This document shows, one piece after another, positions 5,054-64,000 of a stretch of 64,000 nucleotides of DNA. A program made the position numbers and the translations under genes. Under the pieces are notes generated by a model. That model worked only from the letters and a program-made list of their open reading frames with translations. It had not been told where the DNA came from and did no database searches. The stretch's first letter is position 1, and every line of letters begins with the position of its first letter. Where the stretch lies: the NCBI GenBank assembly GCA_031414595.1, contig JANNVX010000086.1, positions 32,001-96,000 on the forward strand, given 5' to 3'. Source of the stretch: Deinococcales bacterium (lineage in GTDB: Bacteria > Deinococcota > Deinococci > Deinococcales > JAAFIG01).

Positions 5054-5569
5054 TTATCCCCTTGGTGGGAAAACACCTTGCAGGGCAATACAAAAATTAA
5101 CCACCAAATACGGCATTTGGTTGTTGTGGGGTAGGCTACTCCCAGCCGGTGCAAGACTTGGGGCAAGAATTGTGTTAGGTGCAGCATTGACATAGGGTGT
5201 TTTGCCAACAACCCGAGCAGGCACAGAACCGCTTGGGCTGTTGGTGTCACCAACGGCATTCAATGCTCCAAAGGTGTGATTGTGCTGTGGAATCTCGGTT
5301 TCCAATAAAGTCACATTGCTTTCACCAGTGGTTTCGCCCAAGCTGTAAAACGATAAGCCAGGTCCTTGACCCGGTTGCAGTGGGCTGCGTCCTTGTAAAT
5401 TGGGTAAACCAAAGGTGGTTCGCCCGTCACCACCGTAGGTTATACCGAGCAAACTAAACAAAGCCGTATTTTGCGAAATAGATATAAGTTGTCCATCACA
5501 AGTTGCCCAGCCTCTCGGGGCAAAGTTAAAACCGACCATCCTGATTTCAGCTACAAATTGATCTGACAT
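5054..5569 (-). CDS. Phage tail-collar domain protein (microcystin-dependent protein-like), copy 3
   Basis: FVAEIRMVGFNFAPRGWATCDGQLISISQNTALFSLLG..YGGDG.TTFGLPNLQGR; C-terminal HNN.MPYL..NFCIALQG.FP. Confidence 0.9.
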   Translation of the reverse strand: MSDQFVAEIRMVGFNFAPRGWATCDGQLISISQNTALFSLLGITYGGDGRTTFGLPNLQGRSPLQPGQGPGLSFYSLGETTGESNVTLLETEIPQHNHTFGALNAVGDTNSPSGSVPARVVGKTPYVNAAPNTILAPSLAPAGSSLPHNNQMPYLVVNFCIALQGVFPPRG

Positions 5570-5578
5570 AGAAGCTCC

Positions 5579-6097
5579 TTATGTTTGCGTTGGGAAAATA
5601 CCAAACAGCGCAATAATAAAATTGACTGCTAGAATCGGTTGGATGTTGTTGTGTGGTTGTGAACCACCCGCATTACCAACGGTGCCGGCGTTCATATTGA
5701 CACTTGGACTTTCGATAATATGCAAATCAATATCGGCTACCCCAAGAGTCACAGTGCTGCTTGGTACACCTGTACTGCCTGTACTGCTCGAGACAACAAC
5801 CGCGTGGGTGTGTTGCGGGATTTGCTGGCTAATCAGTGTAACGCTTTCTGTGCCGCTTTTTTCGCCAAGGGTACGGCTACCTAACCCACTTCCTGTCCCT
5901 TGATGAACGGGTATTCGTGAACGTAAATCTGGCAGGGCAAACGTGCTTTGTCCATCGCCCCCATAAGTTGTGCCAATCAATGCAAATAAAGCGTCGTTTT
6001 GGGAAATAGCTTGTAATGAACCATCGCAAAATGCCCAACCAACAGGAGCAAAATTTCCACCGAACATCCTGATTTCACCAATATAAGGATTACTCAT
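5579..6097 (-). CDS. Phage tail-collar domain protein, copy 2
   Basis: YIGEIRMFGGNFAPVGWAFCDG...ALFALIGTTYGGDGQSTFALPDLR. Confidence 0.9.
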   Translation of the reverse strand: MSNPYIGEIRMFGGNFAPVGWAFCDGSLQAISQNDALFALIGTTYGGDGQSTFALPDLRSRIPVHQGTGSGLGSRTLGEKSGTESVTLISQQIPQHTHAVVVSSSTGSTGVPSSTVTLGVADIDLHIIESPSVNMNAGTVGNAGGSQPHNNIQPILAVNFIIALFGIFPTQT

Positions 6098-6107
6098 CTT
6101 GCTCTCC

Positions 6108-6608
6108 TTAGTTCCGACTCGGAAAAATGCCAGCTAAGGCAATACAGAAACTAATCACCGAATACGGCTGCATATTGTTGTGTGGTTGTGAACCACCCGC
6201 ATTACCAACGGTTGAAGCCTGTAAAACCGCTCCGTTATTTTGTGCCGCATAAAGTTTTGCTGCACCATTGGCAAAACTGTTATTGGTCGGTATGGCGGCT
6301 GCACTAGCACTGCTCGAGGCATTCAGGGTGTGGGTGTGGCTTGGCATTTGGCTGACAACTAAAGTATGGGATTCCGAGCCACCCACTTGCCCTTGTGTAA
6401 AACCAGACCCCATATGAATTGGGGTACGACCTTGAAAATTCGGTAAGGCAAAAGTGGTTTGCCCATTACCACCATACGTTGTGCCTAGTAAACTAAATAA
6501 GGCTTGATTTTGATTGATGGGTAGAAATTGCCCATTGCATAATGCCCAAAATTTAGGCGGAAAATTAAAAGCCATCATGCGGATTTCACCAATAAATGGA
6601 TCTGACAT
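6108..6608 (-). CDS. Phage tail-collar domain protein, copy 1
   Basis: FIGEIRMMAFNFPPKFWALCNGQ...ALFSLLGTTYGGNGQTTFALP. Confidence 0.9.
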   Translation of the reverse strand: MSDPFIGEIRMMAFNFPPKFWALCNGQFLPINQNQALFSLLGTTYGGNGQTTFALPNFQGRTPIHMGSGFTQGQVGGSESHTLVVSQMPSHTHTLNASSSASAAAIPTNNSFANGAAKLYAAQNNGAVLQASTVGNAGGSQPHNNMQPYSVISFCIALAGIFPSRN

Positions 6609-6620
6609 AAGACCCCTCCT

Positions 6621-9473
6621 TTAGAATGTTGGAACAACCACGGTACAAGTACCATAACCGGGGGTAGCACTGCCTAAAATACTTGTTTTGCCAGCAGTAT
6701 TTAAATTACTGCGTGGAGCATCTGACAACCAAGAGGTTACAGTTGCAGCACTGGTCAAAGGTGTGCCAGTTGCCCCGTGCAAATTAAAGGTATTTGCAGC
6801 GACTCGGCGCAAAAGATAGTTGTTTGCATTTACATCCGAGAAATTGATGTTATTGCTTACGGCGTTTAAGCATACGGTTGCCCCTGTGCCACCTGAAGTA
6901 CCACCTTGGACTTGAATGCCTGTAATCGGAAGCGGGTCAGTGCTTGTGGCGGTATTGCTCAGTAACGAGAGTTGTAAATTAGCGGTCGAAGTCGGTGCAG
7001 AACCAGCATTGACTAGGATACCAGCACCTTCAGCGTCAAGTACAGTATTGGTTTCAATCAAAGCCTGTAAAGTAGCTGCTTGACGCAGGCGGATGTCCAT
7101 ACCAGCACTTGCGCCAGTGTCTGCCCCAAGGTGCAAATCTATGGTGTTGCCTTTGATTCGTAACTTATGGGTTTGGGCTGGGGTATCGGCATCTATGCGA
7201 ATACCAGAACCATCCACTGTAATTAAATCTATGCGGTTATCATCTATGGTGGTGGTGGTTGCGCCACTGCTTTGGTACTGGGTGTTAATGCCATAAAAAG
7301 CATTCTCGCGGATACTGGTTTTCTCGACCTTCAAGACCATCCCTGCACTCGAGCCGACAACCGTATTGACCCTGATTCCACTGCTGTCACCTGCTTGAAT
7401 CCGCGAAGCCACTGTGGCTGCATTGCCAGAAGTTACAGCCACTGTACCAATCACCTCTAAGGTGTTGCTACTTGTACCACTGGCGGTGTACAGCACACCA
7501 TCATGGGTGGTTACAGCTGCCCCCACATTGTTGATTGTTACATCCTCGAGCCGTAGTAAATTTGTGCCAGTGTTTGGACTGGTTTCCACACCTTCGTTCT
7601 GCGAGTTGCTGATTCGCATATTTTTCAAGCTAACCGAACCAAATTGGGTGGCTAAATTTACGCCATCGGCAGTATGACCCGTTAAAATCCCGCCGCTTTC
7701 GGCAGTTGTGCCTGTACCTGTCACAGCAAACGAACCCGTGGTGTTGGTTAATTGAATGCCGTTTGCACCTCCACTCGAGGCGACTCTGGTTAAACTCACT
7801 GCCATTGTACCGTTGGTGATGTTCACAGCTTGGTTTGCACCTGCGGCAATACTGGCGTTCGTTACAGTTAGCGTACCGCCAGCCGTACCATTTAAGCCGC
7901 CAAACGTTAAGCCTTTGATGGTGTTGCCTGTGGCTACGGTCATCGGGGTTTGAACCGTTGGGGCTGTACCAGCCACCGCTAGTGTCTCTACGCCAACCAC
8001 AAGGGCTTCGCCAGAACCAATCGCTTGTTGACCATTTTTTAAGACCAAGGCAGTTGTGTTGGTGCTGTTGCCTTTGAGGTAAATAAAGTCATTGATAGCC
8101 GTGGTGTTAGCTGCCGCCACATTGAGGCTCTGGGCATTCTGGAATGGTGCGTTGCTGCGTCCGTCGCCGCCAGCCGAGGCAGCCGAATCTATGTACCAAA
8201 CGGTATTGCTTGGGGCTGCAAGGGTTGCCGAGAAATTAGGGCTGGTGCAAGTCCCATCAGAAATCTGGTAATTAAACGAATCGGCTACTCGAGAATTGAC
8301 CAATGGACGAATTGTGACTGTGCCAGTTGAAGCGTTGGCAATGCCAAGATTACCGCCGTTGGTGGTGGTAGCACTGGCAATAGCGCGGTTTTGTGGGGTC
8401 AGGGTCGCGCCGCCTAGGGCTGTAAACCGTGCTATCAGGGTAGCGTTTGCGCCCGTGTAGGCTTTTTCAGTGTTGCCAATAATGCCAGTTAGATTAGCGG
8501 CTGTGCCATTATCAAAGAAATTTCCGCCCATCCAAGCCGTGTCCACGCCTACACCCACAGTACGAACGCCGGGGATAAAGGTACTACCCGTTAAAGTTGT
8601 GCCGCACATACTGGTGATTTGTGGGCTACCGCCAAAGCTGGTGGCTCGAGCGCTTGCACCACTATTTGTGCCTTGTTCAGAAGTGCTTTCGGTGACTCGA
8701 TTGACATTATCGGTAAAGACTAAGAAGGTCATGCTATAACGGTAAGCAGGGTTGCCGTTTCCAGCGTCGCCTGCTTGTGGAACTTGCAGAGCCAGTGTAA
8801 CTGTGCCAGTTCCATTGGCGGCAATAGTACGGCTAGTGGCACTACTACGTGCCACATACGCATATTGCAAAATGCCTTCGCCTGTAATTGGATTAACATT
8901 GATTAATGACCCATTGGATGCTGTAGTCAGGGTGGTGATTTCGCTGCGCTGATAAATTTGCAAATCGGCATTATTATTGTCTACACAAACAGTGGCTGGC
9001 AAAGTGCAGCCTGTAGTTTTCATAGCATTAACAGGGATAAGATTATTGACATCAACCGTGCCACCCGCAAAGGTTTGAACATTCCTAAAAGCACTCCCGC
9101 CGCTATTATTATTCTGGCGGTATGCTACTAAGGTCAGGTTTGTACGAGCAGCCGCCGCGTTGTTGGTCACAGTAAACCGTGCCATCAGGTAACGGTTGGT
9201 GGTAGCTGGCACATCAATAGATTGAAAGACTTGGCTATTGAATACCAAGGTAGATTCAGTGATTGGTGTCAGGGCTTGGCTCGAGACTCGATTTGGTACA
9301 AATTTAGCGGTTTGTACTTTACCCTCTCCACCAAATTGAACGGTTAGGCTACCCAGCAGTGTGGGTGCAAACGGTTGCTCGAGAACTGGCGGTTTGGCTT
9401 CTGGTGTGGGCGCTTGAGGACAAGCCACCAAGAGCGCAGGCAGTAGTAAAAGTGCCGTCACATAGTGCTTCAT
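6621..9473 (-). CDS. Large surface lipoprotein: unannotated N-terminal domain, Ig-like segment and predicted beta-helix C-terminal region
   Basis: Lipobox LLVAC. Rich in T/G/N/A/S, with WYIDSAASAGGDGRSNAPF and repeated N.I....GI motifs typical of parallel beta-helices. Confidence 0.75.
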   Translation of the reverse strand: MKHYVTALLLLPALLVACPQAPTPEAKPPVLEQPFAPTLLGSLTVQFGGEGKVQTAKFVPNRVSSQALTPITESTLVFNSQVFQSIDVPATTNRYLMARFTVTNNAAAARTNLTLVAYRQNNNSGGSAFRNVQTFAGGTVDVNNLIPVNAMKTTGCTLPATVCVDNNNADLQIYQRSEITTLTTASNGSLINVNPITGEGILQYAYVARSSATSRTIAANGTGTVTLALQVPQAGDAGNGNPAYRYSMTFLVFTDNVNRVTESTSEQGTNSGASARATSFGGSPQITSMCGTTLTGSTFIPGVRTVGVGVDTAWMGGNFFDNGTAANLTGIIGNTEKAYTGANATLIARFTALGGATLTPQNRAIASATTTNGGNLGIANASTGTVTIRPLVNSRVADSFNYQISDGTCTSPNFSATLAAPSNTVWYIDSAASAGGDGRSNAPFQNAQSLNVAAANTTAINDFIYLKGNSTNTTALVLKNGQQAIGSGEALVVGVETLAVAGTAPTVQTPMTVATGNTIKGLTFGGLNGTAGGTLTVTNASIAAGANQAVNITNGTMAVSLTRVASSGGANGIQLTNTTGSFAVTGTGTTAESGGILTGHTADGVNLATQFGSVSLKNMRISNSQNEGVETSPNTGTNLLRLEDVTINNVGAAVTTHDGVLYTASGTSSNTLEVIGTVAVTSGNAATVASRIQAGDSSGIRVNTVVGSSAGMVLKVEKTSIRENAFYGINTQYQSSGATTTTIDDNRIDLITVDGSGIRIDADTPAQTHKLRIKGNTIDLHLGADTGASAGMDIRLRQAATLQALIETNTVLDAEGAGILVNAGSAPTSTANLQLSLLSNTATSTDPLPITGIQVQGGTSGGTGATVCLNAVSNNINFSDVNANNYLLRRVAANTFNLHGATGTPLTSAATVTSWLSDAPRSNLNTAGKTSILGSATPGYGTCTVVVPTF

Positions 9474-9637
9474 TGTTCACCCCCCAAAGTATCTTGGAGT
9501 TCGTCCAAGGGATTATCTGGGAAGCCTGTTGTGCCTATGGGTAAGGACACACCAGTCATCGAATGCCATTGGTGCTTTTCAAGTTGTGGCGTGTAATACG
9601 TCTTTTTTGTGAAAATCGGATCGGTCGGGATCATCAT
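9470..9637 (-). CDS. Unannotated 55-aa peptide with a YxxPxL RiPP-leader-like motif, translationally coupled to the lipoprotein
   Basis: Strong RBS AAGGAGGA then ATG 9637. Translates MMIPTDPIFTKKTYYTPQLEKHQWHSMTGVSLPIGTTGFPDNPLDELQDTLGGEQ; its TGA overlaps the lipoprotein ATG (ATGA). Confidence 0.75.
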   Translation of the reverse strand: MMIPTDPIFTKKTYYTPQLEKHQWHSMTGVSLPIGTTGFPDNPLDELQDTLGGEQ

Positions 9638-9670
9638 TTCCTCCTTTGGTTTGTTCTACTCTATCTAAAA

Positions 9671-9702: not shown

Positions 9703-9816
9703 TCTGAAATCGGTCTTTAAGAATTACGAATATAAACACTATCACATTTTAATAAATCAAGTCCTAAGCTATTAAAAAGCAACTGCATTGTTACAGTGTC
9801 TCATTTCTTGGCTGGT

Positions 9817-60327: not shown

Positions 60328-63300
60328 TTAGATATTAGGGTTAGCAAAAACCCTTGAAACAGCAATCCCATTTGTTGTGATGATGTACTCAAGTTCACTT
60401 GGTCGTTTCGGATATGTAGGATCTGTGTACTTCAGTTTAACAGTTAGTGAAACAGTATCTCCAGCACGCACAGAAGCTGCCATATTTCTCTCTAAAGCAG
60501 ATAATGCGCCCGTATTGAGTGTACTTCGGATAGGCACAATGTTATTTGAACGCGATCCTCCAGCCCCACCTAATACATACGCTAGAATATGTCCCGCCTG
60601 ATCTAGGCTATCACCAGTTACTACGTCAATTGCACCATTTGCCACTGTCTCACGTCTTGCGGTTCTCGTTGGATTTGTCCCACCATTGATGTATGTACTA
60701 TCTAGTACAGCTGTAACTTGGGTTATTAAATCTCCAACTTTGGTTACTGTTGTTGGACAAAGATTTTTTGGTACTGCTCGGGTTTGAAGGGTTATTTTTC
60801 CTGGCGATGCGGCTGCCGCCAATCTCTTTGCAACACAGTACACGGAGGCTTCAATATCTGCAATTCGGACTTGTGCTTCTATATTCAAAGCATCGTATCT
60901 TGGGTCTTGAATATCATCATTAATTTTGCCCAGTGCGGCTTTGGGTTGTAATTGTAATTCATCTGCATAAACTTTCACGGAGGCTTCAACTCTATCGTTA
61001 CATTCTGTTCCGCAATCATTGATGCCCTTAACAACTTTCCCAAAGGCTGTGTCTAAATCTGTCTTTAGCCCATCAACTGTTTTCCCAGCGTCTACACCTT
61101 CTTGAATAATCTTTTCAATGCCGTTAGAAACACCTTTTGTACCTTGCTTGCTTGGCTTGAAGACCTTGGCAAACTTGGCGTATAGCTCGCCTGTAACTGG
61201 TGAAATATCAGCAATTACGCCAACGCCAGCCAGTACAATCATTCCTACACCTAGGGTTTGGCATTCTTGGGTTTGACAGGCTTTCACCGTCTCGAGGAAG
61301 TCCTTACCACTGCCAATAAAGGGTATGAAACTGGTTGTAAAGTTCTTTGCGTCTTCCCAGAAACCATCTTTTAAGTAACTGTTCCATTTTAGAACAGCTG
61401 TGGCGGAGTCATTGGTTAGGATATGTCCCCAGAAATTGGCAGTCACGGCTGGAATTGGGTACTTAAAATCTGGAATATCGGCAATACCTACTGGTGGGGT
61501 GTAGGTTGCAGTGACAGTGCTGCAATTATTGAGCAGTGCATTGTCTGGCATTTTGTTAATCCAGTCGCTGTTGTCTGTACCGCAGTTGGGATTGCCGTAC
61601 ATGCTAATTTGGGTTAAATCTAGCTTATCGCCGTTTAAGGGGTAGGCATTGCTTGGCAGGGTGACTTCAATAAATGCTTTGCCGTTTTCCATGACACAAT
61701 CGCCGCAGTCAGATAACAGTGACGGGTTGGTGGTTTTGAAGGCGGCTTTGAAGTACCCGTTAGCGGTGGTCATCAGTGCGCCAGTGTCATCCACAGCGTA
61801 TACAGGCACTTTGAATTTAATGTTGCCGTTATTTACATCACTTTGGCGTAAGCGCACGGTTAGCATCAATTCGGTTGTGCCGTTAAAGTTGCCTTTGTTT
61901 TCAGTGGTGTACGGGGTGGCTTTGTCACCTGGTATCATTTTGTCTGGTAGTACAGCCATATAGATTTTGGGTATCCGAAGCCCACCAATTACATCAAAAC
62001 GGTAGGTTTGGTCAAATAGACTCGAGGTCACATGGAATTGACTATTGCCTTGGGCTTGTAGCACAGGTACATCGGTGCTACGAATTCGCACAAATTCGCA
62101 TAAATCTGGGTTATTGGAGTTCTCGAATTTCAGGTGAGGGGTTTGAACTTGGTTGTAATAAGTCAGTACAGAACTGCAAAATACATTCCTAAAATTACTT
62201 CCATTGCTCCAAGCATTCCAACGGGTAGAAACTCCCGGGAAAGCAGCGCTTTTGTGCATCACATATGGAAAGTAATCAATGTAGTTTGTACCCGCTTGTG
62301 GACGGGCTGCATATGGGCGAATCACCGAACGAGAGGCAGGTAGATTATCGAGCGGGTCAACGGTTTTGGCTCGAGTCAAACTGGGGTAGTTAAAAGCTGG
62401 GCGAAAGAAGGCATTTTGTGGTTGTGCGGTAATGTCTTGGGCTTTGGCTACCACATAAGCACGGTACGTGTCGGTTTGACCTTTATTATCGGTCACGGTG
62501 AGTTTAACAATGTGTTCGCCGGCATTAAAGGTATGGGTGGTTTGTGCGCCAGTGGCTGTGGTGTTATCGCCAAAATTCCAAGTGTAAGTTAAAGCGCTGC
62601 TGCCTGTGGAGGTTACTGCATCGAAACTCACATTAAACGGAGCAATCCCAAAACTTGCGCCTGAGCCAAAGCTGCTCGAGAGTACAAATTTGGCTTTTGG
62701 CTTGGGTTGCCAACGGGTAAGCCAAGTTTCGTTTTGGTAGGCAACACTACCGCCGCCACTGGTGCGGTTGAGCTTTCCACGAATCAGAGGACGATTATCA
62801 ATGATTTTGAGTTTCACCACGTAAGTCCCTAGGGTTGGGTAATTGTGGCTGACTCTCGAGCCTGTGCCTGTAGTGTTATCGCCAAAATCCCATTGGTAGG
62901 CAAAACCGGGCAGTGGGTCGCCCGCGTCAAAATTGGCTGTATCAGAACCATTTAGGTTCAGGTTTGGCGAGATATTCTGAATTTCTGGGAGGATGGCTAC
63001 TTGAACAGTTTTTTGTTGAGTTCGTCCTGTACTGTCGGTTACGGTTAGATTGGCGTTGTACAAACCCGGATTGGTGTAATTATGACTCACAAATGGGCTG
63101 GTACTGGTTGTGCCGTCCCCAAAATTCCATTGGTACGTTAAACCTGTTCCGCCAGAGGCACTAGCATCAAAGGTCATGTTTGAACCAGCCGTTCCTATGG
63201 GTGTCTCGAGGTCAAACGAGGCAAGGGCAGCATCTTCAACGTACCAGCGAACTCTGGGTATGCGAATTGTGTTTAATGGCGTGGCAACATCGGTGTCTGT

Positions 63301-64000
63301 TCCTACCAAGGCGACTTCGCTTGCACCTAGGGCTTGCCCTCGAGTTATTGCACTGGCAGTGTTTTCTTCGGCTCGAGTGACACGGTTGTTACTTTCGCTG
63401 GTCAGTAAAAAATTAAAGGTGAGTTTGAGTGGTAGGTTTGGGAATGTTCCAGCTACTAAAAAAGCGGGTGCTTTGAAGGTCACGGATACCGTACCAACAT
63501 TACACTGGTCGGTTGGACTGGTTTTGCAACTCACGGCTGGGATGACTTTAGAGGTGCTGGATTTTCGGGCTGCAAAACCGTAGTTTAGAATTGTGTCATT
63601 GACAGAAAGTCCAATACCACTTGTAATGGCATCAGCTTTTATTTGGGTGGCTTCGGTTTCGCTAAAGGCTTGAAAATCGGCTGTATTAGCATTAACCAGT
63701 CCTGTGCTGTACGACAAGTAATTGGATGGTTCAAAGTTACGAGCGGTTTGTACATCGGTGATGGTTTGGTTATTCCAACCAATAATACTGGTGAGGGCAG
63801 TTCCACCTATTTCGGTTTGGTTGCGGTTTCTGGCAACTAAAGAAAGGTTAGCAAGTGGGTTACTGCTGTTGTTGGTGACTTTGTAATTAGCGGTAAAAAA
63901 CCAGCGTTCTGGACTCGAGTAAAGGCGCATGGTGTAACTGGCTTGTGAGAAACTAACATCGGTGGTGGTTGGGAAAGTGGATTGGGTGCTGAGTTTTTGG
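60328..64000 (-). CDS. Polymorphic-toxin-like protein (5' end outside the window): shared N-terminal domain, three PKD domains, pre-toxin region and C-terminal DNA/RNA non-specific endonuclease
   Basis: Frame stays open from 63930 to the window edge. Y.W.FGD PKD motifs x3; FIPFIGSGKD pre-toxin-like motif; DQAGHILAYVLGG.GG...NIVP....N......LE...Y.....RP nuclease motif. Confidence 0.85.
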   Translation of the reverse strand, partial: QKLSTQSTFPTTTDVSFSQASYTMRLYSSPERWFFTANYKVTNNSSNPLANLSLVARNRNQTEIGGTALTSIIGWNNQTITDVQTARNFEPSNYLSYSTGLVNANTADFQAFSETEATQIKADAITSGIGLSVNDTILNYGFAARKSSTSKVIPAVSCKTSPTDQCNVGTVSVTFKAPAFLVAGTFPNLPLKLTFNFLLTSESNNRVTRAEENTASAITRGQALGASEVALVGTDTDVATPLNTIRIPRVRWYVEDAALASFDLETPIGTAGSNMTFDASASGGTGLTYQWNFGDGTTSTSPFVSHNYTNPGLYNANLTVTDSTGRTQQKTVQVAILPEIQNISPNLNLNGSDTANFDAGDPLPGFAYQWDFGDNTTGTGSRVSHNYPTLGTYVVKLKIIDNRPLIRGKLNRTSGGGSVAYQNETWLTRWQPKPKAKFVLSSSFGSGASFGIAPFNVSFDAVTSTGSSALTYTWNFGDNTTATGAQTTHTFNAGEHIVKLTVTDNKGQTDTYRAYVVAKAQDITAQPQNAFFRPAFNYPSLTRAKTVDPLDNLPASRSVIRPYAARPQAGTNYIDYFPYVMHKSAAFPGVSTRWNAWSNGSNFRNVFCSSVLTYYNQVQTPHLKFENSNNPDLCEFVRIRSTDVPVLQAQGNSQFHVTSSLFDQTYRFDVIGGLRIPKIYMAVLPDKMIPGDKATPYTTENKGNFNGTTELMLTVRLRQSDVNNGNIKFKVPVYAVDDTGALMTTANGYFKAAFKTTNPSLLSDCGDCVMENGKAFIEVTLPSNAYPLNGDKLDLTQISMYGNPNCGTDNSDWINKMPDNALLNNCSTVTATYTPPVGIADIPDFKYPIPAVTANFWGHILTNDSATAVLKWNSYLKDGFWEDAKNFTTSFIPFIGSGKDFLETVKACQTQECQTLGVGMIVLAGVGVIADISPVTGELYAKFAKVFKPSKQGTKGVSNGIEKIIQEGVDAGKTVDGLKTDLDTAFGKVVKGINDCGTECNDRVEASVKVYADELQLQPKAALGKINDDIQDPRYDALNIEAQVRIADIEASVYCVAKRLAAAASPGKITLQTRAVPKNLCPTTVTKVGDLITQVTAVLDSTYINGGTNPTRTARRETVANGAIDVVTGDSLDQAGHILAYVLGGAGGSRSNNIVPIRSTLNTGALSALERNMAASVRAGDTVSLTVKLKYTDPTYPKRPSELEYIITTNGIAVSRVFANPNI

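Follow-up and report, generated by a model that had tools for sequence, protein, structure and literature searches.

Phosphorylated lasso peptide pathways, in which split B1 and B2 proteins are accompanied by a kinase and a nucleotidyltransferase, are described for the bsf cluster of Bradymonas sediminis, for paeninodin and for pseudomycoidin (PMC10368454, PMC9266682). The leaders of lasso precursors carry the motif YxxPxL at positions -17 to -12 (PMC10368454). The kinase BsfK phosphorylates Ser3 of the core of its lasso precursor; the B1 protein speeds this up strongly, and the core alone is not a substrate (PMC10368454). PsmK and PsmN phosphorylate and glycosylate (PMC9266682). The subject of this work is a short gene in a 64,000-nucleotide stretch of a Deinococcales genome (GCA_031414595.1, contig JANNVX010000086.1, positions 32,001 to 96,000; "the window"), which encodes a peptide with a leader of this layout and overlaps the start of a gene for a lipoprotein with an N-terminal domain of its own kind (the N-domain). 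The best explanation, considered reasonably likely, is that the peptide is the precursor of a cyclase-less, lasso-derived maturation system which is tied to lipoproteins and, in this genome, operates in trans. The original prediction, made from the window alone, had listed a non-lasso, leader-like peptide processed in trans among its options. That option is now the favoured one, as the enzymes were located elsewhere in the genome, co-occur with the peptide and are clustered with it in other lineages.

The peptide gene and its family

The gene was confirmed by reading of the sequence (Table 1) and encodes 55 residues if counted from its first ATG. It had been claimed that the open reading frame (ORF) was missed by the ORF track, and it is indeed absent there, with the caveat that the length cut-off is the only cause: the ORF is listed when the minimum is set to 30 residues, and its relatives are called by public gene callers. 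The strong ribosome-binding site and the ATGA stop/start overlap with the 950-residue lipoprotein gene, both noted earlier, are present. The AAGGAGG site stands 2 nt from the first ATG (9637) and 5 nt from a second in-frame ATG (9634), and the TGA stop (9472..9470) shares its TG with the ATG of the lipoprotein gene (9473..9471). In two orthologues from the same genus (91-92% DNA identity) the first ATG reads ATT and the second is conserved. Because of this, and because the second ATG is better spaced, a product of 54 residues starting at 9634 appears most likely. A search for promoter-like sites found nine, against 5.7 +/- 2.6 in shuffled sequences, which is only suggestive. No model in Pfam or NCBIfam matches the peptide, with nothing meaningful even at an E-value of 10, and a protein atlas search returned unnamed clusters only.

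A hidden Markov model (HMM) profile prepared from the paralogues detects 14 intact copies in the source genome (4.49 Mb, 120 contigs, 94% complete), together with a divergent copy on contig C32 and a cut-down remnant on contig C102. Each of the 14 intact copies shares an ATGA with the start of a lipoprotein gene. In their alignment Y, P, L, G, S and P are invariant and E, T and G are at least 90% conserved, which gives the consensus KQPYxxPxLE-x8/9-TG[VI]SLPIGT, and the acidic tail after it varies. Many synonymous codons encode the invariant residues (six for Ser, namely AGC, AGT, TCG, TCT, TCC and TCA, from both codon boxes; four for Gly, three for Pro, three for Ile and four for Leu), and therefore the constraint acts on the protein. 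Judged from these alignments, the ORF is a real gene under protein-level selection.

These data bear on the idea that the ORF is a cis-acting translational coupling device, an upstream ORF delivering ribosomes to the lipoprotein gene, and that the peptide itself is functionless. The stop/start overlap fits such a device, as does the position of the purine-rich ribosome-binding site of the lipoprotein gene, which falls inside the last peptide codons (e.g. GGTGAACAATGA in 6 of the 14 junctions). Since the site sits in those codons, the C-terminal GEQ conservation is partly a nucleotide constraint. However, the amino acids in the middle of the peptide are conserved with free synonymous variation, the family keeps the same leader layout in two phyla and is associated with peptide-processing enzymes, and the overlap of the two genes is missing in some relatives. 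A functionless peptide is therefore regarded as highly improbable.

Several copies have peculiarities of their own. The Leu-Glu of YxxPxLE is written CTCGAG in 12 of the 14 paralogues (e.g. on contigs C39, C60, C15 and C62) and CTTGAA in the window copy; part of the Leu-Glu conservation may be tied to this DNA word. The copy on contig C22 has an open frame and an intact motif and is without an ATG, GTG or TTG start, with Ser where its relatives have Met. From its sequence, it seems either to have lost its start or to use an unusual start codon. The C102 remnant stops after TGLSI and is followed by an unrelated gene in place of the lipoprotein gene, which suggests a deleted module.

Public protein sets contain 113 homologues at 90% clustering, all short and either unnamed or labeled "hypothetical", and 180 representatives at 50% clustering. 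Among the 150 of these representatives that were listed, lengths are 38-89 residues except for one protein of 159. A search for fused or longer forms found only two proteins of 111-112 residues, which is weak evidence for a stand-alone peptide. In a collection of 31 genomes the profile matches 16, namely the window's own and 15 of the 18 other members of its family (7 of 7 other members of the genus). The family thus comprises 19 genomes, and the collection holds no further ones. Among 12 genomes from four other families of the order the profile has no match; the divergent peptides of family f3 were missed by it. The order of peptide gene and then N-domain gene is kept in other genera, mostly with the ATGA overlap, and in some pairs without it.

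The leader agrees with the layout of lasso leaders, in which YxxPxL lies about 12-17 residues before the junction and Thr, Ile or Val occupies position -2 (PMC10368454). In all lineage versions the Tyr is placed 17 residues before a Thr-x junction (TG, TL or TQ), with 16 in the window copy, and the same Y(-17)/T(-2) layout is found in the Gemmatimonadota and f3 versions. The earlier recognition of a lasso-leader-like layout in YxxPxL and the Thr downstream of it is borne out by these alignments. The core, in contrast, does not have the Gly, Ala, Ser or Cys start and the Asp or Glu at positions 7-9 of lasso cores. At the canonical junction it begins with Val, Ile, Gln or Glu, and in most copies positions 7-9 are T, S, T or G; the absence of an acid had been pointed out earlier for the window copy. 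The core starts with VSLPIG in the window's family, with VGSVPF or IGSAGF in f3, with QQTIPV or EQSVGI in Gemmatimonadota, and with VAKST at a further locus, L091. Across these lineages Ser or Thr is placed at core position 2-4, near the Ser3 modified by BsfK. When the family was compared with the genome's own lasso precursor in hhalign, the P-x-L region was aligned without significance (E 0.059).

Lasso-type enzymes in the genome and in clustered loci

Searches for PqqD and for the transglutaminase core gave no match on the window's contig. None of the genome's lasso-type enzymes lies in the window, as had been stated earlier for the lasso cyclase, the recognition element of peptides that are synthesized ribosomally and modified after translation (RiPPs), known as RRE, and the transglutaminase-like peptidase. 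The search of the genome for PqqD/RRE genes, proposed as a check, located a B1-like PqqD protein paired with a kinase on contig C75 and a nucleotidyltransferase-B2 fusion (hereafter N-B2) on contig C46. B1-type and B2-type proteins are both represented in the genome; their genes are unlinked to the window and are clustered with the peptide gene in other lineages.

The C75 unit consists of two genes, present in single copy, for an 83-residue PqqD protein and a 310-residue protein with weak HprK-like matches. The PqqD protein scores 58.4 bits with PF05402 (cut-off 23.4), and among NCBIfam models it is matched best by the lasso PqqD chaperone NF033530 (E 3.5e-14). In the kinase, residues H141, G156, G159, G161, K162, T163, E179 and D180 are invariant in five orthologues. 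Their spacing is that of the BsfK motif H148-G163-G166-G168-K169-S170-D186-D187 (PMC10368454), the first acid being Glu and not Asp. The two genes stay together while their flanks change, and no small ORF of the family is local to them. The single-copy C46 protein (442 residues) has an NTP_transf_5 domain (PF14907) fused to a lasso-B2 peptidase domain (PF13471). It scores 47.7 bits with the lasso B2 model NF033537 (cut-off 33); a further score with this model is 53.7 bits. In the pseudomycoidin pathway a homologous nucleotidyltransferase-like protein adds a hexose to the phosphorylated serine (PMC9266682). Neither the enzymes nor the peptide have signal sequences.

A second orphan unit was found on contig C85. 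It encodes a 200-residue PqqD-domain protein, a 307-residue HprK_rel_A-like protein (E 5e-9, below the cut-off) and two GT2 glycosyltransferases, and is present in 4 of the 31 genomes.

A scan with the kinase alignment, with one genome per species, uncovered 36 loci. Six are from metagenome-assembled genomes of Gemmatimonadota/Longimicrobia (29-42% identity), and the others are from Deinococcales. The PqqD and kinase genes stand beside N-B2 in the Gemmatimonadota loci, in L091 (a metagenome-assembled genome of Deinococcaceae) and in genomes G013, G020 and G008; N-B2 is convergent in most mapped loci and co-directional in L091. In four Gemmatimonadota loci, matches to an HMM of the N-domain lie directly at the cassette. 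For example, the order in locus L087 is a 68-residue leader-motif ORF, an overlapping gene for a 288-residue lipoprotein (approximately the N-domain alone), a 799-residue lipoprotein with N-domain and FG-GAP, PqqD and kinase, with N-B2 convergent, and the PqqD gene overlaps the stop of the lipoprotein gene before it. The components of L087 recur in locus L085, where a gap of about 45 nt separates the peptide gene from the lipoprotein gene that follows. In L108 and L110, which belong to family f3 of the same order as the window's genome, a divergent peptide gene overlaps the start of an N-domain lipoprotein gene (E 1.6e-10 in L108) beside PqqD and kinase. L091 contains a leader-bearing ORF with a 9-residue core and is without a lipoprotein. 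Two Gemmatimonadota genomes (8.4 and 6.2 Mb) have a single N-domain gene each, located at the cassette, and a third has three tandem copies there.

As a control, a loose leader pattern was run over the source genome and gave 65 matches. The family copies, with the C102 remnant among them, account for 14, and the rest correspond to about 11 chance matches per Mb. In approximately 0.2 Mb of foreign loci the same pattern gave five matches. This number is unremarkable, but all five lie exactly at the cassette, and four of them precede an N-domain gene. The clustering across phyla is the decisive evidence for linking the peptide, the lipoprotein and the enzymes.

A lasso cyclase query matched a single place in the genome, on contig C58, where a complete conventional lasso cluster is found (precursor with a core starting GGPVADGD, ABC transporter, B1, B2 and cyclase). 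With this cluster at hand, the peptides might be true lasso precursors cyclised by the C58 enzyme, if the junction lay after PIGT-x and gave Gly or Ala at position 1 and Glu or Asp at about position 7. In many copies, which read PIGT-x-[GAST]-x-x-D-x-[LF]-E, the alternative junction does have Thr at -2 and an acid at 7. However, the C58 cluster has a precursor of its own, and its cyclase is present in only 3 of the 31 genomes against 16 for the peptide, so it cannot be the general partner of the peptides. No lasso cyclase was found in the clustered loci, and PF00733 matches in the cluster-bearing genomes lie hundreds of kilobases from the cassette. In G013, a single-contig, 94% complete genome with five peptide-profile matches, the only PF00733 match reaches 22.8 bits, and no credible Asn-synthase-type gene is present. 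An acid at positions 7-9 is also expected by chance in acid-rich tails. Because the alternative junction is absent in short-tailed members, which have no acid, and in the Gemmatimonadota and f3 versions, and because most genomes are without a cyclase, it is judged a coincidence. Genuine lasso precursors are the least probable of the explanations considered, with hardly any chance of being correct.

Within the family, the peptide, the kinase and N-B2 occur together in 12 of the 19 genomes. The peptide is found with the kinase only in G002 (82% complete), with N-B2 only in G004 (57%) and G017 (82%), and alone in G007 (94%), which has a single module. G009, G010 and G012 (87-91% complete) have none of the three, and no family genome has an enzyme without the peptide. 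In each of two genera, one genome has all three and another has none of them, and the pattern therefore does not reduce to a single split. For comparison, a protein adjoining another PqqD gene is present in 26 of the 31 genomes, and a second HprK-like gene in 4. G007, with 15 N-domain genes, one peptide gene and no enzymes, was considered as a natural experiment and rejected: its other N-domain genes are of a peptide-less clade, and it therefore represents one exception only.

The coupled lipoproteins and the surroundings of the window copy

The 14 lipoproteins encoded downstream of the peptides (468-1305 residues) have Sec-type lipoprotein signals and a common N-terminal region of about 260 residues. 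No curated model in Pfam or NCBIfam matches this N-domain. The C-terminal modules vary: DUF5122, FG-GAP, SBBP and RCC1 propellers, subtilase, endonuclease/exonuclease/phosphatase with a lamin-tail, and cadherin-like modules were detected. The N-domain is modeled as a beta-sandwich (pLDDT 79.5, pTM 0.81). Fold searches gave no clear solved relative; the best Foldseek match is the TasA fibre (E 3.6e-3, TM 0.24) and the best VIA-align match is WSSV VP37 (Z 6.2, rmsd 4.0 over 119 residues). Going by the model, the likeness to VP37 and TasA may be that of a common beta-sandwich arrangement only.

In the source genome the N-domain HMM detects 21 proteins. It had been proposed to look for the motif upstream of all genes with this domain, and a peptide gene was found upstream of 15 of them and not of the other 6. 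The peptide occurs only with the best-scoring N-domain clade. The N-domain is absent from G009 and G012; only weak matches were found in G010 (one) and G008 (two).

The peptide could in principle be a private partner of the N-domain, a cytoplasmic holdase or a donated strand that undergoes no maturation, with the co-occurrence of the enzymes being incidental. The ATGA coupling, strict in the 14 copies and kept in other genera, is consistent with this, as are the restriction to one N-domain clade and a weak correlation between peptide-to-peptide and N-domain-to-N-domain similarity (Mantel r 0.24, reached by 148 of 5000 permutations). On the other hand, only 3 of the 14 modules have a nearest paralogue common to the peptide and its N-domain, and in the C22 module the peptide is C75-like and the N-domain C49-like. 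Sec-type signals are found in the lipoproteins and no signal peptide in the peptide, whose most conserved part is the lasso-type leader motif, and enzymes are clustered with both genes in two phyla. A private partnership is thus rated unlikely. The chaperone or strand-donor role put forward in the original prediction gained no positive evidence, and meets the same problem of topology.

Another earlier expectation, that a similar peptide gene precedes the toxin gene beyond position 64,000, failed. The gene that runs off the window starts at about 64179, and upstream of this start there are stops in all frames and no motif. Its product is a lipoprotein of about 1280 residues in which a divergent N-domain is combined with three PKD domains and, at the C-terminus, Endonuclease_NS_2. 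From its domains, it looks like a surface protein of the polymorphic-toxin type from the N-domain clade that has no peptide.

Downstream of the window lipoprotein, three paralogous tail-collar proteins of 166, 172 and 171 residues (45-48% identical) are encoded. They are the sole PF07484 matches in the genome and are context of this copy only. They are followed by a periplasmic-binding-like protein with a twin-arginine translocation (TAT) signal and then a GNAT protein. Large BTAD/NB-ARC/TPR regulators adjoin 3 of the 14 modules at 250-430 bp, and a fourth module has one 3 kb away; there are about 20 such regulators genome-wide. The adjacency hints at dedicated regulation of the modules.

Table 1. 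Positions of the peptide gene, its neighbours and related features. Plain numbers are window positions; C and L labels denote contigs and loci.
Feature	Position	Strand	Basis
Peptide gene, 55 aa (first ATG) or 54 aa (ATG 9634), stop included	9470..9637	minus	ORF reading; 14-copy paralogous family
Shine-Dalgarno AAGGAGG of peptide gene	9640..9646	minus	Read from sequence
Predicted leader, 28 aa, YxxPxL, Thr at -2, Gly at -1	9551..9634	minus	Motif and spacing in alignments; putative cleavage site
Predicted core, 26 aa, VSLPIGT with invariant Ser, then variable acidic tail	9473..9550	minus	Alignments, codon comparison
Promoter-like site upstream of peptide gene (weak)	9746..9775	minus	Promoter-site search
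950-aa lipoprotein gene, coupled by ATGA	6621..9473	minus	ORF reading; lipobox LLVAC in translation
Shared N-domain of lipoprotein, about residues 30-290	8604..9386	minus	Alignments, HMM, structure model
Three tandem paralogous phage tail-collar genes, downstream on same strand	5054..6608	minus	Domain search
Lipoprotein gene with N-domain, PKD and Endonuclease_NS_2, runs off window, no peptide gene upstream	60328..64000	minus	Domain search, HMM
Large BTAD/NB-ARC/TPR regulators near modules	C88:128113-131001, C49:7625-10126, C18:136762-140076, C75:65068-67920
Conventional lasso cluster on C58	L039:4928-8954	minus
Second orphan PqqD unit on C85	L041:2911-5793	minus
Peptide copy on C22	C22:122-271
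Peptide remnant on C102	C102:~2256-2330	minus

Proposed maturation and comparison with known systems

In the proposed system, drawn up by analogy with the phosphorylated lasso pathways, the stand-alone PqqD/B1-type protein would bind the predicted 28-residue leader. The HprK-like kinase would then most likely phosphorylate the conserved Ser or Thr at core position 2-4. Further decoration may come from the nucleotidyltransferase domain, and the fused lasso-B2-type cysteine peptidase would remove the leader at the putative junction. The released product would be a short, linear, acidic peptide beginning VSLPIGT. The single-copy enzymes on C75 and C46 would serve about 15 dispersed precursor genes. 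In this genus the two enzyme loci are unlinked to each other and, with one non-conserved exception, to the precursors, whose modules now number about 15; action in trans is therefore required. The N-domain is the non-enzymatic part that the system conserves, probably as the mature peptide's partner, receptor or immunity element; a candidate alternative is that lipoprotein synthesis is merely coupled to peptide synthesis. The genetic association is strong, and the chemistry and the role of the lipoprotein are what we infer.

Several observations speak against this interpretation. Every biochemical step (modification, cleavage and binding) is argued by analogy. The NF033530 score of the C75 PqqD protein, 52.8 bits, is below the curated cut-off of 70, and the Gemmatimonadota homologue scores 47.1 bits. 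Of the 14 intact peptide genes, 13 share no contig with the enzymes, and the one adjacency, about 1.7 kb on C75, does not recur in four relatives. The Ser of VSLPIG is often replaced or displaced in another of the family's genera (e.g. TGVILSIGG, TGVILFIGN), and a fixed phospho-site is therefore not universal. The 94% complete G007 has one peptide-lipoprotein module and neither enzyme was found in it, and 6 of the 21 N-domain proteins of the source genome have no peptide gene. The genomes are related and so do not count as independent cases; their co-occurrence figures exaggerate the support, and are supportive rather than decisive. Finally, the cassette has no exporter and the peptide no signal sequence; a meeting with the exported lipoprotein outside the cytoplasm would therefore need an additional export step.

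To our knowledge, lasso-type B1, B2 and kinase enzymes have been known only from pathways which end in a threaded macrolactam. Here, lasso-type recognition and tailoring parts persist without a cyclase in at least two phyla, tied to a lipoprotein N-domain. Orphan "PqqD plus HprK-like" pairs thereby gain a concrete candidate substrate, an explanation is at hand for a large family of short genes without annotation (180 clusters at 50% identity), and linear modified peptides linked to surface proteins are a possible new RiPP output. A bolder and rather doubtful extension is that the system represents a class of ribosomal peptide system not described before, in which a linear, phosphate-decorated peptide serves as ligand, cofactor or lock of the N-domain and not as a free antibiotic, with the roughly 15 polymorphic modules forming a diversifying surface repertoire. 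If true, such a repertoire could be used e.g. for kin recognition, or for delivery or control of the protease, nuclease and propeller modules. A second Deinococcales family has complete or near-complete genomes (G020, G028), and the system may be testable in culture if these are cultured strains.

A literature search that included the main text of PMC12710340, with subscription journals and supplements outside its scope, found neither a cyclase-less lasso-type cassette nor a lipoprotein-coupled precursor. The system resembles the phosphorylated lasso pathways in its YxxPxL leader, the conserved residue at -2, the stand-alone B1, the B2 domain, the HprK-like kinase with the same motif and spacing, and the NTP_transf_5-type nucleotidyltransferase. 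Unlike them, it has no lasso cyclase or ABC exporter in the cassette and no Gly1 or acid at 7-9 in the core; the nucleotidyltransferase and B2 are fused, and the precursors are multi-copy and dispersed. The precursor is also coupled to a large N-domain lipoprotein, which is not part of the clusters described in the available sections of the lasso papers. As both the cyclase and the core with Gly1 and an acid at 7-9 are absent, the product should not be filed as a lasso peptide.

Multi-copy, dispersed RiPP precursors with a conserved leader, a variable core and a single-copy enzyme acting in trans are also known from the prochlorosins and ProcM. There, however, the chemistry is that of a lanthionine synthetase, no lipoprotein genes are coupled and the cores are hypervariable, whereas the core start is conserved here. 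LanI-type immunity lipoproteins are encoded beside lantibiotic precursors. In comparison, the lipoproteins of the present system are 468-1305 residues long, with enzymatic or propeller modules, a distinct N-domain and a start that overlaps the precursor gene before it. The uncharacterised "HPr-rel-A system" and "SynChlorMet cassette" of NCBIfam likewise pair an HprK-like P-loop protein with a PqqD-family chaperone, and weak matches to TIGR04352, TIGR04353, TIGR04249 and TIGR04355 were detected, all far below the curated cut-offs. Unlike here, no precursor or lipoprotein partner is defined in the descriptions of those models. The parts of the cyclase-less, lipoprotein-tied combination are those known from the phosphorylated lasso pathways.

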